The translations under genes and the position numbers were made by a program. Under the pieces are notes generated by a model that saw only the letters and a list, made by a program, of their open reading frames with translations, did not search any database and was not told where the DNA came from. A stretch of 15,028 bases of DNA from Promethearchaeia archaeon (GTDB lineage: Archaea > Asgardarchaeota > Lokiarchaeia > Sigyniarchaeales > SOKP01), in assembly GCA_046483985.1 (NCBI GenBank), contig JAWOCD010000026.1:1-15028 (forward strand), given 5' to 3'. Below are positions 2,469 to 10,387 of this stretch, in pieces (within the stretch, counting starts at the first letter, position 1; each line of letters starts with the position of its first letter).

Positions 2469-2650
2469 CGAACAATTTTCTCGATTGGCAGCAGCAATTC
2501 AAAAATAAGCATTGGGATAAAACGCACTGTAATACCAATTATAATACAAATTTTTATTTTTTTAACTCAAAAGCAGCAAAAAGATTGATCAAAAAATGGA
2601 GAAATGAATTATTAGAGGAGATGAAAAATGATAAAAATCAAGAAAGATGA
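2465..2650 (+). CDS. Hypothetical protein
   Basis: GGAGG SD, ATGA overlap with the previous gene. Confidence 0.6.
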   Translation: MTNNFLDWQQQFKNKHWDKTHCNTNYNTNFYFFNSKAAKRLIKKWRNELLEEMKNDKNQER

Positions 2651-2846
2651 ATTTATCGAGATTCTAAGCGAGGTAAACGGGCTGCGCGGAGATTTAGAGT
2701 TTAGTGGAAGTGAGTTAGAGGAAGATGCACGGAAGTTGCATAAGCATTTGTTTAGGTTTTGGGTAAAACAAGTATGGGAGAGGGATTACGAAGATTGGAA
2801 AAAAAGTATGCAAAAAGAATGTAATTCGCAGCATTCTGAGGGGTAA
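2628..2846 (+). CDS. Hypothetical protein
   Basis: GAGGAG SD, 72-aa helical-looking ORF. Confidence 0.7.
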   Translation: MIKIKKDEFIEILSEVNGLRGDLEFSGSELEEDARKLHKHLFRFWVKQVWERDYEDWKKSMQKECNSQHSEG

Positions 2847-2901
2847 ACTTCAGAGTGTGTCGAATTATATTTTCTAAAATTTAAGATTTAGGAGGAAAAA
2901 T

Positions 2902-3111
2902 ATGAAAAGTATAACAATAAATCTTGCTGAAGCATACGTGAACGCAATAAAATCGCTCACTGATTTGGGAATATATCCTTCGAGAAGTGAGGCGGTCCGC
3001 GTTGCGCTCAGCGAGTTTCTGCAAGATGAAATTAAACTATTAGATGAACTAAACTCGGAGGTTGCCGAATCCTTTTTTAAATCGGCGCTGAGAGAGCGAG
3101 GTGAGAATTAG
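2902..3111 (+). CDS. Ribbon-helix-helix (CopG/Arc/MetJ-type) transcriptional regulator
   Basis: N-terminal alternating beta-strand KSITINL, helix, then GIYPSRSEAVRVALSEFL, a canonical RHH pattern. GGAGG SD. Confidence 0.9.
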   Translation: MKSITINLAEAYVNAIKSLTDLGIYPSRSEAVRVALSEFLQDEIKLLDELNSEVAESFFKSALRERGEN

Positions 3112-3961: not shown

Positions 3962-4191
3962 TGAATATTAAGATTGATGGAGATCCTGATAAGATTAAGG
4001 AGAACCAGTATTTTATCGAGACAATCATTGAGATCTTTAAGACCTGCAAAAACAGTAAAGAGTTCATCACGCGTATAAATAAATTAGTCAACGAGAAAAA
4101 TGGATTTATAAAAGTAAAAAAAGACGGGAAAACGATTATTGACACTGAAAAAAATATATATACGAAATTGGAGGCGGAGCGAGAAGGATGA
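3961..4191 (+). CDS. Hypothetical protein
   Basis: TAATG coupling; ends in the repeated junction peptide EAEREG. Confidence 0.75.
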   Translation: MNIKIDGDPDKIKENQYFIETIIEIFKTCKNSKEFITRINKLVNEKNGFIKVKKDGKTIIDTEKNIYTKLEAEREG

Positions 4192-4610
4192 CCGATTGTA
4201 AAGAAGATATAGATTTGATCTGGTTGATCGAGAAGTTTGATTATGCGCTGCAGTCTCATTTTCCGTTTGCCTATACAGAATCCCGGGAAAAAGCAGAGCA
4301 ATTACTTATGGAAGAGGATACGGGATTTAACGAGTTCCGAGTGAGGAAAGTCAAAACACTAAAGGAGGTGGAGCGAGAGAGATTTAAGACGATGAGTTTA
4401 GAGGAGAAATACGAGCAAGGCATTGATCTTCAAGATGGAGAAATTAGGCTTATACTTGCTTGTAATCAAGATTTTTACCGACAAACCGGAGGAATTCCAA
4501 TTCGAAATAGAAAATATACAGAGACTTTCAAACAATGGCTAAGAGAAGAGAGAGGGTGGAACAGATTAGTAGATTATATAGAAAAGAAGGAGGCTGAGAG
4601 AGAAGAATGA
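4188..4610 (+). CDS. Hypothetical protein (possibly a fusion of two cassettes)
   Basis: Starts MTDCK, ends EAEREE. Contains an internal junction-like copy (KEVERER..M) with an in-frame ATG at 4392. Confidence 0.8.
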   Translation: MTDCKEDIDLIWLIEKFDYALQSHFPFAYTESREKAEQLLMEEDTGFNEFRVRKVKTLKEVERERFKTMSLEEKYEQGIDLQDGEIRLILACNQDFYRQTGGIPIRNRKYTETFKQWLREERGWNRLVDYIEKKEAEREE

Positions 4611-5126: not shown

Positions 5127-5894
5127 ATGAATAAAACCACAATTCAGAAAATTCTCAAAACTTTAGGAATTAAACGAGGGACCATGTACGACGACGCCAT
5201 CCAGAGACTCAATTTTCATGTGGGTTGTAAATTCAAATGTAAATATTGCGCGCCGACATTTCAGAGACAAATGAAACGACAAAAACAAAACTGTATAGAC
5301 TGTTATCATTATGTTCCACATCTTCATTTAGACCGTTTAGAGGATTATCTGGATCATACGACAGGGGATGAATTCATTTGGTTAGGCGCTTCAGGCGATA
5401 TCAGTTTTTGCCCAAAAGACGCGATGCGAGAAGCAGTTAAGGTAACTAAAAGGAATCAAGACCGGACATTCTTTTTTCAGACAAAAAATCCCTCATATTT
5501 TCACGGATTTAAGTTTCCGGATAATGTGCTGCTCTGTATCACATTGGAAACAGACAAAGATCATATCGCAAGGCAAGTTTCCTTGGCCCCAGCACCGAGC
5601 AAACGCATAAAAGATTTCAAAGAGTTAGACCACCCTCATAAAGTCATAACAATCGAACCGATTATGACGTTTCACTTGAAAAAAATGAAACAGATTATTC
5701 TCGATAAGATTAAACCGGAACGGGTTTACATTGGTTATGATTCGCATCCAGACTATTCCAATCTAATCGAACCGCGGTTAGAAAAAACATTAGCATTGAT
5801 CAAAGCAATCTCAAAGCATACAAACGTAAAAACAAAAGAGATCCGCTTTCCGCACCAACATCAAGTTAATTTAACACAATGGGGTGTCAACTAA
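5127..5894 (+). CDS. Radical SAM protein, DUF5131 / phage Gp37-Gp68 / SPL-like, with C-terminal PIP-box-like QVNLTQWG
   Basis: GCKFKCKYC (CxxxCxxC), FFFQTKNP, ITLET, VITIEPIM and VYIG motifs. GAGGAGGT SD. Confidence 0.88.
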   Translation: MNKTTIQKILKTLGIKRGTMYDDAIQRLNFHVGCKFKCKYCAPTFQRQMKRQKQNCIDCYHYVPHLHLDRLEDYLDHTTGDEFIWLGASGDISFCPKDAMREAVKVTKRNQDRTFFFQTKNPSYFHGFKFPDNVLLCITLETDKDHIARQVSLAPAPSKRIKDFKELDHPHKVITIEPIMTFHLKKMKQIILDKIKPERVYIGYDSHPDYSNLIEPRLEKTLALIKAISKHTNVKTKEIRFPHQHQVNLTQWGVN

Positions 5895-6339
5895 AATGAA
5901 CCAGAATTTTTCATTTTCCTCTAAATTTGGAAAAGCATACGTCGCAGCAATTCGCTCAGGAAGAAAAGATATGACGAATCGATTTGCGTCTGAATTCAGA
6001 GCAAAATGTAAAATTAATGATCTTATGCATTGTTTTTTAGACCTTCGTTCCGAAAACAGAAAAAGATTATTTGATGTCCCGGTCCAGAGGAGGATCTTAT
6101 GGTTTGTTGATGATATGCCTCAGCCAGAGGTCGCACATGAAGTCATGTCACCGCGATACTCGTTTAGTTGGAGGGATTTTGCAATTAAGGACGGCCTTTC
6201 AACATATACAGAATTTTACGAATATTTTCAAAACCACAAAAAGGGCAAAAAGTTCTTTTGTTTCATCTGGGACCCTGCGCAACGTCTAAAAAAAATTACT
6301 TTAATGCGATTTATAAAAAAAAAGAAGAAGATTATATAA
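5884..6339 (+). CDS. ASCH (PUA-like) domain protein
   Basis: AIRSGRKDMTNR matches the ASCH GxKxxTxR signature, plus the C-terminal FAIKDGLSTYTEFYEYF helix motif. The start could be ATG 5896. Confidence 0.82.
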   Translation: MSTKMNQNFSFSSKFGKAYVAAIRSGRKDMTNRFASEFRAKCKINDLMHCFLDLRSENRKRLFDVPVQRRILWFVDDMPQPEVAHEVMSPRYSFSWRDFAIKDGLSTYTEFYEYFQNHKKGKKFFCFIWDPAQRLKKITLMRFIKKKKKII

Positions 6340-6348
6340 AAAAATAAA

Positions 6349-7029
6349 ATGACGGAAACAAAAAACAAGATTGATAAATCAACCCAGTGGTGGGAAGATA
6401 AACCATTTGGCGCCCCGTGTTCTCAATGTCGAAAAGCACCGATGCGACATGTTGGGCTCTATACTGAAGAATGTCCGCGATGCGGCCATTATTATGTTTA
6501 TGATTTTATTAACGATACCGTGAAAGAAGAAGGATTTCGGAACCATTTCTGTGAGCAAGGAGAGGTGTTAGTATTAACAAATTGTAGTAAATCGAAAGCA
6601 AACTCGCCGTGTCAAGCAAAAGCGCTGTACCAAGGCCACATCTTTCAAAAGGCACTAAAATTAGCAAACCGATTTAAGTTTGATTTTTATATAATCAGCG
6701 CAAAATACGGCTTTCTTTCAGGTGAAGCCAAAATTGCACCGTATGATAATGAAATAGTTACAAAATCAGATAAGGACAACTTGCGAGAGCAAATCACCGA
6801 CGAATTTATACAACATATTCAAACCTATAAAACGATTATCTTGGCGATGGGTAAAAAATATCGGGAAGTCATAAAACCATTGCTAAAACATAGCGATGCC
6901 CGAATATTATCTGTAAGTAGTAAGAAAGGGTACGGAGGGTATCTTCGTAAATTAGACAAACTCATAACTATGGACCCTATTAATTTTAAGAAACTTATTC
7001 TAAAACGAGGCGGTGAGAGCGATAAATAA
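6349..7029 (+). CDS. DUF6884-like protein with N-terminal Zn ribbon
   Basis: LTNCSKSK...AKALYQGHIF...FYIISAKYGFL...IAPYD...MGKKY is the DUF6884/YaaA-related pattern. N-terminal CSQC...CPRC. Confidence 0.8.
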   Translation: MTETKNKIDKSTQWWEDKPFGAPCSQCRKAPMRHVGLYTEECPRCGHYYVYDFINDTVKEEGFRNHFCEQGEVLVLTNCSKSKANSPCQAKALYQGHIFQKALKLANRFKFDFYIISAKYGFLSGEAKIAPYDNEIVTKSDKDNLREQITDEFIQHIQTYKTIILAMGKKYREVIKPLLKHSDARILSVSSKKGYGGYLRKLDKLITMDPINFKKLILKRGGESDK

Positions 7030-7366
7030 GAAAAGAAATACGGGGGCGTTGGATTCATTTTTATCTAAAAAGACGTACCCCAAAAAGACACAGCCACACA
7101 GAATAAAGGTCCCACCACAACTGAAACAAGTAAACTGTGAGAAATGCGCGTATTATCAAGGAATATATTGTCCACGTTGCATGTGCGTATATAAATATCT
7201 AATCCGACACATACGAGGTGTTGAGAGGTTAGAGGGGTCCTCGAAGGACCTCAAACTTATCAGAGAGTTTGAAAAATTAGGTTTTCAAGTCGATTGGGAA
7301 GATACCCGGTATGACTTGAAAAAAATTACAAAAATAACCATTCCGGAGGAAGAGTATGAAAGATAA
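7013..7366 (+). CDS. Zinc-finger hypothetical protein (CEKC...CPRC) with N-terminal PIP-like TGALDSFL
   Basis: Fills the gap between coupled genes; Cys cluster. The exact start is uncertain. Confidence 0.7.
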   Translation: MRAINKKRNTGALDSFLSKKTYPKKTQPHRIKVPPQLKQVNCEKCAYYQGIYCPRCMCVYKYLIRHIRGVERLEGSSKDLKLIREFEKLGFQVDWEDTRYDLKKITKITIPEEEYER

Positions 7367-8108
7367 GCCCAAAGTTCAGAAACATAAATTAGGAAAGATA
7401 ATCTTTTGCGATTGTTTAGATACGGAGTACGGCCTCCCCAGCATAGAAGATAATTCTTATGACTTAGGATTTACCGACCCAAAATGGGGAGTTAAAATGC
7501 AACAAAATACCCGCACCTATATCGACGGTCGCGAGATGGATAATTCAGATAAGGTCCATTTTGACGATACAACATCCCCCGGATTTAATAAAACATGGTT
7601 TTTGCATTTAGACCGGATATGTAAGCGTATCATTTTAGTTTTAGGCGATAAACAGATTATATGGTTTATTCGCCATATTCAAAAAGAACCGAAAGGAATC
7701 TTACCGATCTTTTGGAAGAATTCACCATTCGGCTGCGGATACGCAAAACGCCGGCGACATTCACATTATTTGTTATACGGAAAATTTGATACTAAATTCA
7801 TGCATAGCATCTTAGCAAAACGGTATACTTCATCAAACGTGGAACCATTTACATATTATTGGGGTGCCACAAATAAAGAAAAACACTTTAATCATCCGAG
7901 TCCTAAAGGCTTGGAAATTCCGATGCGAATTTTAAAGGAATTAAATCCCAAATCTATGATTGACCCATTTTCAGGGTCGGGGACGTATGTATATGCGGCG
8001 CATATCCTAAATATTCCCTTTTTAGGTTATGAAATAAATGATAAAGAATATTGTAAAGATCATGAATGGCGATTTGCCCAAAAAAATATTAGCAGGTGGA
8101 TAAGCTGA
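7356..8108 (+). CDS. Site-specific DNA methyltransferase, N4-C/N6-A, beta class; C-terminal PIP-box-like QKNISRWI
   Basis: Catalytic motif IV variant TDPKW precedes HPSPK and SAM-binding motif I IDPFSGSGT...GYEIN, which is the beta order. GGAGG SD. Confidence 0.92.
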   Translation: MKDKPKVQKHKLGKIIFCDCLDTEYGLPSIEDNSYDLGFTDPKWGVKMQQNTRTYIDGREMDNSDKVHFDDTTSPGFNKTWFLHLDRICKRIILVLGDKQIIWFIRHIQKEPKGILPIFWKNSPFGCGYAKRRRHSHYLLYGKFDTKFMHSILAKRYTSSNVEPFTYYWGATNKEKHFNHPSPKGLEIPMRILKELNPKSMIDPFSGSGTYVYAAHILNIPFLGYEINDKEYCKDHEWRFAQKNISRWIS

Positions 8109-8410
8109 AAGAATACAAAAAATATAAGTTTAAACGGTATACAATGTCTGCTCCTTTCTTTTCAAAAAAAGACAAGATAAAAAGGGTTTCTCTTTTCATT
8201 TTATTCTTTTTATTATCTACTTTTTATTTTGTAATTATACACCCTGTATTCCATAATCCTCTTCTCTCGTTAATTATCTCCTTACCTATTTCGCTTGTAC
8301 TTTTTTCTCTCTTTTTAATTTTAATTCTGGATACGATTAACAGAATAAAGGTAGACTCAGAAATAACTTCTTTCTTAGAAGGTAATAAAGATTTGGGGGT
8401 GGAGGATTAA
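8096..8410 (+). CDS. Small membrane protein with two transmembrane helices
   Basis: Two long hydrophobic stretches (VSLFILFFLLSTFYFVII; LLSLIISLPISLVLFSLFLILIL). The start could be ATG 8144. Confidence 0.75.
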   Translation: MDKLKEYKKYKFKRYTMSAPFFSKKDKIKRVSLFILFFLLSTFYFVIIHPVFHNPLLSLIISLPISLVLFSLFLILILDTINRIKVDSEITSFLEGNKDLGVED

Positions 8411-10387
8411 ATGTCGGCACCAAAAAAATTCGATGTTGAGGCGGAGCTTCAGAACCAATTCAAAAAAGACCTTGTTACTCAACTCAAAAAACATGGATTT
8501 AAGGAATGGAAGTTAGAATTTGAAGAATATACAGACGCGAAGCGAACATTTAATTATCTCAGACTCTCTATTGAGCGATCTAAAAGAGACCCAAATACCG
8601 GCTTTTCTGAGAGTGTAAAACTAAATGATAAGGTTAATGGAGCCCTTTTTCCGTTACGCGAAAAGTGGGTATGGGAAAACGGAGCATACCACGGACCCTG
8701 CGCAGTTGACAAACTTCTTGACGAGAAGATTATATCAAATCACCATTTTTATGACATTAGATATAATTGGGAATGGGTCAAGAGACAGCACGGGACGATG
8801 CTCGGCCACAATATAAATATAAATGGTTATTACATCAAAATGCTTCAATATCTTTCTTTCCCCCATCCCGATTGGTATTATTCATATAATTGGTACTATT
8901 TTCCAAAAGAGGGTGATATTTATCTATCAAACTTTAGCGCACAGAGAGTTTTTCGGGCGACAAGACAATATATACAAGAATTTGATCACAGTTATCCATA
9001 TATTTTCATTCCTATGCGCGATTCATTAATTTCATGCTTGTTAAAAGACTCGGAAAAGCATGTATCAGTTTTAACGTCGAATGAAGGTCGCTACTTCGTG
9101 GAGGGACGGAAATACACATCAAGAGAGGAAGTAATCAAAGCGTATGAACAATATTTAGAGACGCAGCATATTTCAGTTCATTTCAATAGTGAAGTTTGTC
9201 TTTTCTTTAAATTCTTTATGAAGGAATTGTTTAGCGTGACATGGGATAAGAAACATGAAAAATGGTATAGAACGAAGATTTATCAAATTAATAAACATTT
9301 ATCAGTCCGTAATCGAAACGGACAAATTTCGGTTTATGTTAATGATAAAAAGTTCCGACAATGCACATATCTCCTCTTTAACTTAGATACAAATAAATTA
9401 GAAGAATATGACCGAATTAATTCTATTGACGAGATGAAAAGCATATATTCTAATGATAACGAAGCCGGAAAAGTAAGAATCGACACCGATACGGAATTTT
9501 GGGGCCACTGTTCCAATTTGCAAGCATGGTACGAAAATGATTATGATACCAGGATCCTTGAAATGCGATTGGCCTTCCCCCTACTCAAGAAGCTGACCGA
9601 AGCCGGTGACTCTCAAGCAAGAAAAGTATTTAAAGAAGAGGTTGCCCGTAGGTTCCAGAGCGGATTTCGCCCGGTACAAGAATATTTGATGATGGAAGGA
9701 TATACTGACGTTCTAACAAACGAGGAGCAAAAGTCGATAGGTCTGCTTGGGGATGATATTTTAGGCCCGTATAAGAGAGCAATAAAGAAACACTGCGCTG
9801 ACTCATCGGTAAAAAAAATGATTCAAGAGCTTCACTTAACTTATTTAGAAGAGGAGAGATATGATGCAGAAATACGGGTGCCCGTGTTATTACTCAAAAA
9901 CGGCACTTATCTTAATCTCTCTCATCGAGCGCTTATAGAGTTAGGATATAAACATCTTCTCGGTCTTTTACATCCTTATAAAGATGAAATTGTAGAGCAG
10001 TTTCAAACCGATGTAATCATAAGATTATTACGACATTTAATTGAGATTCCGCATTCAGAAGGTGAAGACTTTCTGAAAGGATTGAAACTTAAGCGATGTG
10101 AATATCTCACAATGAAAAAAGAATATTGTCCTAATTTTCATCCTAAGTTTTGTGGAGTTGAGTTTGTCTGTTTTTGTCAGGATACTTGTAGTTTATGTAA
10201 TAAACCCTATTGCGCTCATACACAGTGCAAGGTTGACCTTGTTCATTTCCGGGAGGTAACAGGCAAACATTTTGTAAACCCCTACAAACAAAAGAGATGG
10301 GAAAAGCAAGAAGAATTACGAAGCTTTCATAAGCCGGATAATACGCTGACATTAGATTATTTTATGCAAAAAAAGGAGGCACATTAA
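8411..10387 (+). CDS. Multidomain protein with central Lokiarchaeia-type 'FWGHCSNLQAW' domain, Cys-rich C-terminus and PIP-like tail TLTLDYFM
   Basis: 658-aa ORF with GGAGG SD. About 9270-9715 encodes YQINKHLSV...VYVNDKKFRQC...SIDE...EFWGHCSNLQAWYENDYDTRIL...AFPLLKKLTEAGD..ARKVFKEEVARRF, recalled from Lokiarchaeia LRR-associated proteins. Confidence 0.85.
   Translation: MSAPKKFDVEAELQNQFKKDLVTQLKKHGFKEWKLEFEEYTDAKRTFNYLRLSIERSKRDPNTGFSESVKLNDKVNGALFPLREKWVWENGAYHGPCAVDKLLDEKIISNHHFYDIRYNWEWVKRQHGTMLGHNININGYYIKMLQYLSFPHPDWYYSYNWYYFPKEGDIYLSNFSAQRVFRATRQYIQEFDHSYPYIFIPMRDSLISCLLKDSEKHVSVLTSNEGRYFVEGRKYTSREEVIKAYEQYLETQHISVHFNSEVCLFFKFFMKELFSVTWDKKHEKWYRTKIYQINKHLSVRNRNGQISVYVNDKKFRQCTYLLFNLDTNKLEEYDRINSIDEMKSIYSNDNEAGKVRIDTDTEFWGHCSNLQAWYENDYDTRILEMRLAFPLLKKLTEAGDSQARKVFKEEVARRFQSGFRPVQEYLMMEGYTDVLTNEEQKSIGLLGDDILGPYKRAIKKHCADSSVKKMIQELHLTYLEEERYDAEIRVPVLLLKNGTYLNLSHRALIELGYKHLLGLLHPYKDEIVEQFQTDVIIRLLRHLIEIPHSEGEDFLKGLKLKRCEYLTMKKEYCPNFHPKFCGVEFVCFCQDTCSLCNKPYCAHTQCKVDLVHFREVTGKHFVNPYKQKRWEKQEELRSFHKPDNTLTLDYFMQKKEAH

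Follow-up and report, generated by a model that had tools for sequence, protein, structure and literature searches.

Conserved terminal peptides resembling the PCNA-interacting box in a putative DNA-modification gene block of a Promethearchaeia mobile element

The window analyzed here is an entire contig of 15,028 bp (C49) from a genome bin of 4.06 Mb that is 97% complete. C49 is best called a mobile element, either a virus or a plasmid, of a Promethearchaeia (Lokiarchaeia) archaeon. All of its plausible genes lie on the forward strand. We describe a block of seven genes (5127–10387) in which several proteins carry, close to one terminus, a short peptide that resembles the box by which proteins interact with the sliding clamp PCNA (PCNA-interacting peptide, PIP). 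The first gene (5127–5894) encodes a radical SAM (rSAM) enzyme of 255 residues with a CX3CX2C motif, which is related to the DUF5131/Gp37-Gp68-like family. It ends in the PIP-like peptide QVNLTQWG (5862–5885), with Gly at position 8, followed by VN and the stop codon. The second gene (5884–6339) encodes a protein with an ASCH-type fold, which has 151 residues when read from the GTG at 5884 or 147 residues when read from the ATG at 5896. Its tail is KITLMRFI (6292–6315), a match lacking the Gln, followed by KKKKKII and the stop. The third protein (6349–7029; 226 residues) belongs to DUF6884 (PF21818, E 2e-21) and has an N-terminal Zn ribbon; no PIP-like tail was found in it by the motif scan. 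The fourth (7013–7366; 117 residues) is a Zn-finger protein with no assigned family and an uncertain start codon. Here the peptide is N-terminal, TGALDSFL (7040–7063), with KKR and SKK as its flanks. The fifth gene (7356–8108) encodes a β-class N4/N6 DNA methyltransferase (MTase) of 250 residues from family PF01555. It ends in QKNISRWI (8079–8102), a strict match at the extreme C-terminus that is followed only by Ser and the stop. A hydrophobic, predicted membrane protein of 104 residues (8096–8410) and a protein of 658 residues (8411–10387) complete the block. In the latter, a central domain is succeeded by a Cys-rich C-terminal domain and then, after a linker, by the tail TLTLDYFM (10343–10366), another match without Gln, which is followed by QKKEAH and the stop.

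The strict expression for the motif was Qxx[LIM]xx[FWY][FYLIM], and in the relaxed expression the Gln was dropped, as in archaeal variants. The five peptides named in the original prediction are present with the exact residues and positions given there, and none is more than 17 residues away from a terminus. Their fit to the expression is uneven. The MTase peptide fits fully, the ASCH, Zn-finger and 658-residue proteins fit once the Gln is dropped, and the rSAM peptide fails at the Gly in position 8. Lysine runs, said to adjoin several of the peptides, flank three of the five (ASCH, Zn finger and the 658-residue protein). The relaxed expression occurs 27 times in the 27 proteins of the window. 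Two further terminal matches without Gln had not been listed in the original prediction: DSEITSFL (8354–8377), 10 residues before the end of the 104-residue membrane protein, and WNRLVDYI (4557–4580), followed by EKK, in an upstream protein of 140 residues (4188–4610).

As the background, we used the terminal 20-mers of 3053 host open reading frames (ORFs) of at least 120 residues, with C49 excluded. The relaxed expression is found in 12.9% of the C-terminal and 11.1% of the N-terminal 20-mers, and the strict expression in 0.62% of C-termini. When the strict motif is confined to the last 12 residues, 11 of the 3053 ORFs are retained. PolB, PolD DP2, FEN1, Nre, a Y-family polymerase, a PD-(D/E)XK nuclease and a DUF72 protein account for seven of them, so that clamp clients of this host are well marked by a strict PIP box at the terminus. 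The proteins end, up to their stop codons, in QKTLTSYLE (PolB), QQKLSDFL (PolD DP2), QTSLDTFFK (FEN1), QKTLDDFI (Nre) and QTNLLNFIQV (Y-family polymerase). The host DUF72 protein (G000:C37:81309-82202, L049) carries the strict box QTGLDKFL at its very C-terminus, and it may be an unrecognized PCNA client.

The MTase scored 37.1 bits against PF01555 (cut-off 26.7) and also matched phrog_67. Its structural relatives, CcrM and MboIIA among them, are PDB entries 8s9m (an N4C MTase), 6pbd and 1g60. The SAM-binding motif of the FxGxG type is present as PFSGSGT, and the protein is a member of PF01555. The catalytic motif (7475–7492) reads DPKW. Five relatives have DPPW and others have DPVW, DPQW or DPLW; judged from these alignments, the second Pro of (D/S)PP(Y/F/W) is variable in this clade. 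The tail was expected to be conserved among homologues, and it was: the C-terminus fits [QE]xx[IL]xx[WFY][LIM] in all ten homologues (45–65% identity), with a strict match in eight. Their genes are found on other elements. At locus L004 the MTase stands beside MCM and an integrase, L007 has an rSAM homologue and a TFB-like gene in addition to the MTase, and L009 has an element-encoded PCNA. An AlphaFold2 model built from an alignment of 11 rows had a predicted local distance difference test (pLDDT) value of 39.8, which is too poor to place the tail.

More distant MTases also bear the peptide. A PF01555 MTase of 334 residues with an SPPY motif, encoded on a complete Asgard chromosome (L117, 1276–2280, reverse strand) and adjoined by a second MTase-like gene, has a K/E-rich tail of about 80 residues that ends in QNNLLSYLK at the stop. 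Another, of 317 residues with DPPY (L118, 874–1827, forward strand), has 24 extra residues ending in PLDDFL. The position of the motif at the end of such long tails means that it is not part of the fold in the wider family, and PIP-like MTase tails seem, from these sequences, to extend beyond the C49 element. Further cellular Asgard PF01555 MTases, at L115, L116 and L120, were also seen to carry PIP-like tails, for example STLSNFL followed by nine residues. A search of IMG/VR with the MTase alignment returned only two distant phage-like loci. A distant, phage-like PF01555 MTase from IMG/VR (L057:3510-4655) ends in RRFSQQELFAN. Where the archaeal proteins have their tail, this ending resembles the pentapeptide bound by the bacterial β clamp (QxxLF). 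The idea that 'RFxQ' in the MTase tail is a plain feature of the helix was dropped, since the L057 ending is equally β-clamp-like and so argues neither way.

The ASCH protein had no Pfam match, and its AlphaFold2 model reached a pLDDT of 93.7. Foldseek aligned this model to YqfB (9kyf), ZmASCH (5y6b) and PH0355 (2z0t) with a probability of 1.0 and E values of 5e-5 to 3e-4, and we assign the predicted structure to the PUA-like ASCH fold. We found 31 representatives of the family, of which 30, taken from clusters at no more than 50% identity, were scored for the motif. It is present in the last 20 residues of 16 of the 30 (four of them strict); the count in shuffled sequences averaged 3.0 and did not exceed 9. 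Interior windows of the same proteins contain the motif at a rate of 10%, and the host C-terminal background was 12.9%. Both the conservation of the tail and its excess over shuffled sequence were as anticipated. The consensus is [KRQ][KQ][IL]T[ED][FYW][IFL], or KKIT[ED]F[IF] in short form. The linker that precedes it varies in length, and members without a tail stop at the last core strand. In the model, the core has pLDDT values of 96–98, and the last 17 residues, which comprise the tail, have values of 66–71. The variable linker, the tail-less members and the low pLDDT of the tail are what one expects of a short linear motif appended to the core. Several of the tails end in IEV at the stop. 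When the alignment was searched against 400 Asgard genomes, only two distant relatives were found, both tail-less. An uncontrolled prediction of a complex from the host PCNA and ASCH alignments scored below the mark and speaks neither for nor against binding.

The 658-residue protein contains a central domain of about 110 residues that is hugely expanded in Promethearchaeia (Lokiarchaeia), with the Cys-rich domain after it. Elsewhere in this class the same central domain is found beside LRR, Rab-like GTPase, TPR and WD40 domains. Only two relatives, with 35–38% identity, align to the end of the protein. Both keep the tail as K....T-L-D-x-[FW]-[LIM] (KTLDNWL in P0133 and KTLDQFI in P0134), as had been predicted, and the linker before it differs in length and sequence. 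No relatives were found among viral contigs, and a search of 161 genomes of the class with the C-terminal part gave no match beyond C49 itself and a single broken fragment.

In the elements related to C49, the relaxed motif is present at 11 of 77 C-termini, which is the background rate. Seven of the 11 matches belong to homologues of the MTase, the rSAM enzyme and the ASCH protein. These are the MTases of L004, L007, L009 and L016, the rSAM homologue of L007 (motif QTTLTKFI, within the terminal sequence QTTLTKFIGGNK), an rSAM-like protein of L016 (GLNQWL) and an ASCH-like protein of L009, which ends in QKLTIWI. Such a distribution indicates that the peptide travels with the enzymes and not with the composition of the element. 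L007 also encodes a protein of 109 residues with no assigned family and an ASCH-type tail, SKITEFL. The motifs of the block exist and are terminal; those of the MTase, the ASCH protein and the 658-residue protein are conserved, and the motif is the one that marks the host clamp clients.

Two PCNA genes in the bin could supply the clamp. The host gene lies on contig C115 (L001:1495-2298), beside a PriL-like gene. Its nearest relatives are from metagenome-assembled genomes (MAGs) of Promethearchaeia/Promethearchaeota, that is, Lokiarchaeia, in agreement with the host proposed originally. The second PCNA (L002:1501-2322) is 48% identical to the first and is encoded on C121, a contig of 10.5 kb that is element-like. 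The genes of C121 run in one direction, its GC content is 0.357, as in C49, and it also encodes a winged helix-turn-helix protein and two TFB-like genes. Among the replication and transcription genes of the relatives of C49 are PCNA (L009), MCM (L004) and TFB (L007). The PCNA–winged-helix pair of C121 resembles that of L009, and its TFB resembles that of L007; both are elements that carry relatives of the MTase. C49 and C121 may be pieces of one element or two related (sister) elements. The genes recognized on C49 outside the block are those for two ribbon-helix-helix proteins, for a 3'-5' exonuclease and for a large protein that ends in a winged helix. None was recognized for a polymerase, a helicase, a primase, PCNA, a capsid or terminase/packaging. 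As the exonuclease is the only replication enzyme recognized, C49 must rely on other replication machinery. A clamp encoded by C49 itself was considered at 1422–2468 and rejected: the two upstream proteins gave hhalign probabilities of 1.9% and 0.2% against a PCNA profile.

We propose the following arrangement. The block would constitute a DNA-modification set (rSAM, ASCH, DUF6884, Zn finger and MTase) with a small membrane protein and the 658-residue protein. At least the MTase, the ASCH protein and the 658-residue protein end in xxx[LI]xx[FWY][LIMF], with Gln at position 1 in the MTase, and these ends would dock in the hydrophobic pocket of the clamp, either the host PCNA of C115 or the PCNA of C121. 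The trimeric PCNA ring could carry several proteins of the block simultaneously. Methylation and further processing would in this way reach new element DNA just behind the polymerase, ahead of host restriction. We infer that PCNA is the partner and that modification is coupled to replication. The probability that at least two of the tails are true PCNA-docking peptides is, in our estimate, about 55%; that all five are is quite improbable.

Several observations weigh against this arrangement. One is the frequency of the relaxed motif. When 27 random host proteins were drawn, some run of seven genes contained at least five terminal matches in 16% of the trials and at least four C-terminal matches in 6.6%. 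The density of motifs in the window alone is no evidence (P about 0.07–0.16), and the expectation that they would be commoner than chance did not hold inside the window. The excess is visible, by our comparisons, only through homologues; binomial P values overstate the case, as members of one family are not independent observations. The location of the MTase motif is a second point. All motifs had been placed outside the core domains, which is so for the ASCH and 658-residue proteins. In the MTase clade, the motif follows directly on the last helix and the last conserved Arg, without a linker; in the window MTase it lies only 12 residues beyond the Pfam match. The end of M.MboIIA falls about four profile positions before it, and L113, the closest MAG homologue, lacks the aromatic pair. 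It is possible that the MTase tail is a structural extension of the C-terminal helix.

The rSAM enzyme is a weaker candidate for docking. Its CX3CX2C motif (C-KFK-C-KY-C) lies near residue 34. The protein scored 14.4 bits against PF04055 (Radical_SAM), below the cut-off of 29.5, with weak matches to GP88 and TIGR04471. There are 145 homologues, and many of those at 41–52% identity carry PF07505 (DUF5131). The tail motif is present in 8 of 119 members, below the background, and the conservation expected of it across the family was not seen. In most members the chain stops at the last core strand, about 20 residues short of this tail. The tail is homologous within one sub-clade, in which it reads V-K-x-N-L-E-E-W-M-G-V-K. 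The window sequence Q-V-N-L-T-Q-W-G-V-N has no hydrophobic residue after the Trp, and it is, by visible homology, a degenerate copy of this NLxxW tail. Other members of the family have independent strict tails (QKTLDQYL and QWRLDKWI). In the window, the codons for W-G-V (TGGGGAGTG) look like they double as the ASCH gene's Shine-Dalgarno site, a second role that may constrain their sequence.

The Zn-finger motif is also hard to weigh. Its sole relative, at L015, lies on a contig that is 92% identical to the window over 5128–7369. The motif there is TGTLDTFL, with L, D, F and L kept, and the first 36 residues include 12 differences; from the alignment, L015 appears too close for its conservation to be judged. 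Nothing credible was found in 161 genomes of the class or in metagenome contigs. The GTG start (7013; region 7007–7051) is situated inside GAGGCGGTG, a sequence similar to the GGAGGCGG upstream of other C49 starts, with zero spacing. The start is uncertain, and the real one may lie further downstream. A Leu of the motif is encoded by the TTG at 7049, which is itself a possible start. As a separate observation, L015 has the same rSAM, ASCH, DUF6884 and Zn-finger genes, followed by a gene like that of the 658-residue protein (2514–3083) at the place where the window has the MTase (7356–8108). Both of these genes begin with MKDKP, and the difference looks as if one cassette had replaced another at a gene boundary that is itself conserved. 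The proposal that unrelated proteins of the block each acquired a docking tag stands in part: the MTase (10/10), the ASCH protein (16/30) and the 658-residue protein (2/2) have conserved terminal motifs, the rSAM family as a whole is not enriched in them, and the Zn-finger motif is a weaker candidate.

These points can be combined into a different explanation, in which the matches are due to chance and structure. A loose expression would find many matches in a proteome rich in I, L, F and K, and the conserved tails would be amphipathic terminal helices or strands belonging to the protein's own fold or to an oligomer interface. The background rates and the window statistics fit this, as do the MTase motif that continues the last helix, the ASCH tail, which is drawn as a helix in the AlphaFold2 model, and an rSAM family that is at or below background. 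However, the ASCH and 658-residue motifs stand behind linkers that vary in length and sequence, and the tail-less ASCH members are complete domains. Distant MTases bear the motif 24–80 residues past the domain, and three unrelated folds converge on the peptide used by the host polymerases and FEN1. We consider this explanation rather unlikely. It is improbable that the peptides serve to dock on a hub other than PCNA (a scaffold of the element, or a host replisome or membrane factor) or that they occupy PCNA as competitive inhibitors that slow host replication. Conservation shows function and not the partner; the N-terminus of the Zn-finger protein, with its KKR and SKK flanks, resembles inhibitor-type PIP peptides, of which p21 is the basis for the comparison; the small membrane protein has a similar peptide; and the IEV endings of several ASCH tails are of a type also recognized by other peptide-binding domains. 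Against this, the carriers are enzymes that act on DNA, related elements encode their own PCNA, and the two upstream C49 proteins are unlike PCNA. The consensus is also the one found in the host PCNA clients and in a PIP box that has been validated (PMC11761967).

If PCNA docking is the correct reading, it may have a wider meaning. Given the cellular and element MTases, ASCH proteins and rSAM enzymes described above, we tentatively suggest that DNA-modifying proteins of Asgard archaea and their elements generally use the sliding clamp as their landing pad. A whole pathway could then sit on one PCNA ring. It would correspond, in a prokaryote, to the replication-coupled maintenance methylation by DNMT1 and AMT6 in eukaryotes, and might even have preceded it; this broader picture is doubtful at present. 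If the tails bind PCNA, replication-coupled marking of DNA would not be exclusive to eukaryotes in origin. Binding would, in addition, account for the way in which a small element that lacks a polymerase of its own has its DNA protected before host restriction. A terminal PIP tail would be a cheap sequence marker of fork association, for the 658-residue protein and the ASCH family among others.

PIP boxes, eukaryotic MTases recruited by PCNA, the recruitment of PCNA by an archaeal virus and clamp motifs on bacterial transposases are already known. The window contributes the ASCH family, the 658-residue protein, the rSAM sub-clade and the occurrence of several tagged proteins in one gene block. 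Our literature searches found no description of PIP-tagged DNA-modification enzymes in archaea or archaeal viruses and nothing relevant on archaeal DNA MTases with PCNA-interacting motifs. The literature on Asgard viruses and mobile elements that we examined mentions PCNA, TFB, ASCH, Zn-finger and MTase genes, and does not mention PIP tagging.

The C49 tails share their extreme C-terminal pattern with the archaeal PCNA clients PolB, PolD DP2, FEN1, Nre and the Y-family polymerase. Those clients are replisome and repair enzymes, whereas the carriers in C49 are modification proteins and the 658-residue protein, and three of the five C49 motifs lack the Gln. To our knowledge, multi-protein PIP tagging has not been described for the archaeal virus SIRV2. 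Its Gp1 protein recruits the host clamp PCNA3, according to the passage of PMC5537682 that cites Gardner et al. 2014. SIRV2 resembles the case proposed for C49 in having few replication genes and own proteins that engage the host clamp; it differs in that these are replication and resolution proteins and not modification enzymes. The transposases of bacterial insertion sequences carry motifs that bind the β clamp, and unrelated families of mobile-element proteins have there independently acquired a peptide for docking on a host clamp (PMC4549789). They use the bacterial β clamp and a motif of the QL[SD]LF type and couple transposition, whereas C49 would couple DNA modification. In Tetrahymena, the PIP box of AMT6 (EKKITDFFKR) recruits an N6-methyladenine (6mA) methyltransferase complex to PCNA; immunoprecipitation and F-to-A mutants established that it binds PCNA and that it helps to initiate 6mA maintenance once DNA has been replicated (PMC11761967). 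This peptide closely resembles the ASCH-family consensus KKIT[ED]F[IF]. DNMT1 and AMT6 are eukaryotic proteins of the C5 and MT-A70 families with internal or N-terminal motifs whose binding has been shown, whereas the C49 enzyme is a prokaryotic PF01555 MTase whose binding is predicted from its sequence. As proposed for the C49 MTase, the PIP box of both brings a DNA MTase to newly replicated DNA.

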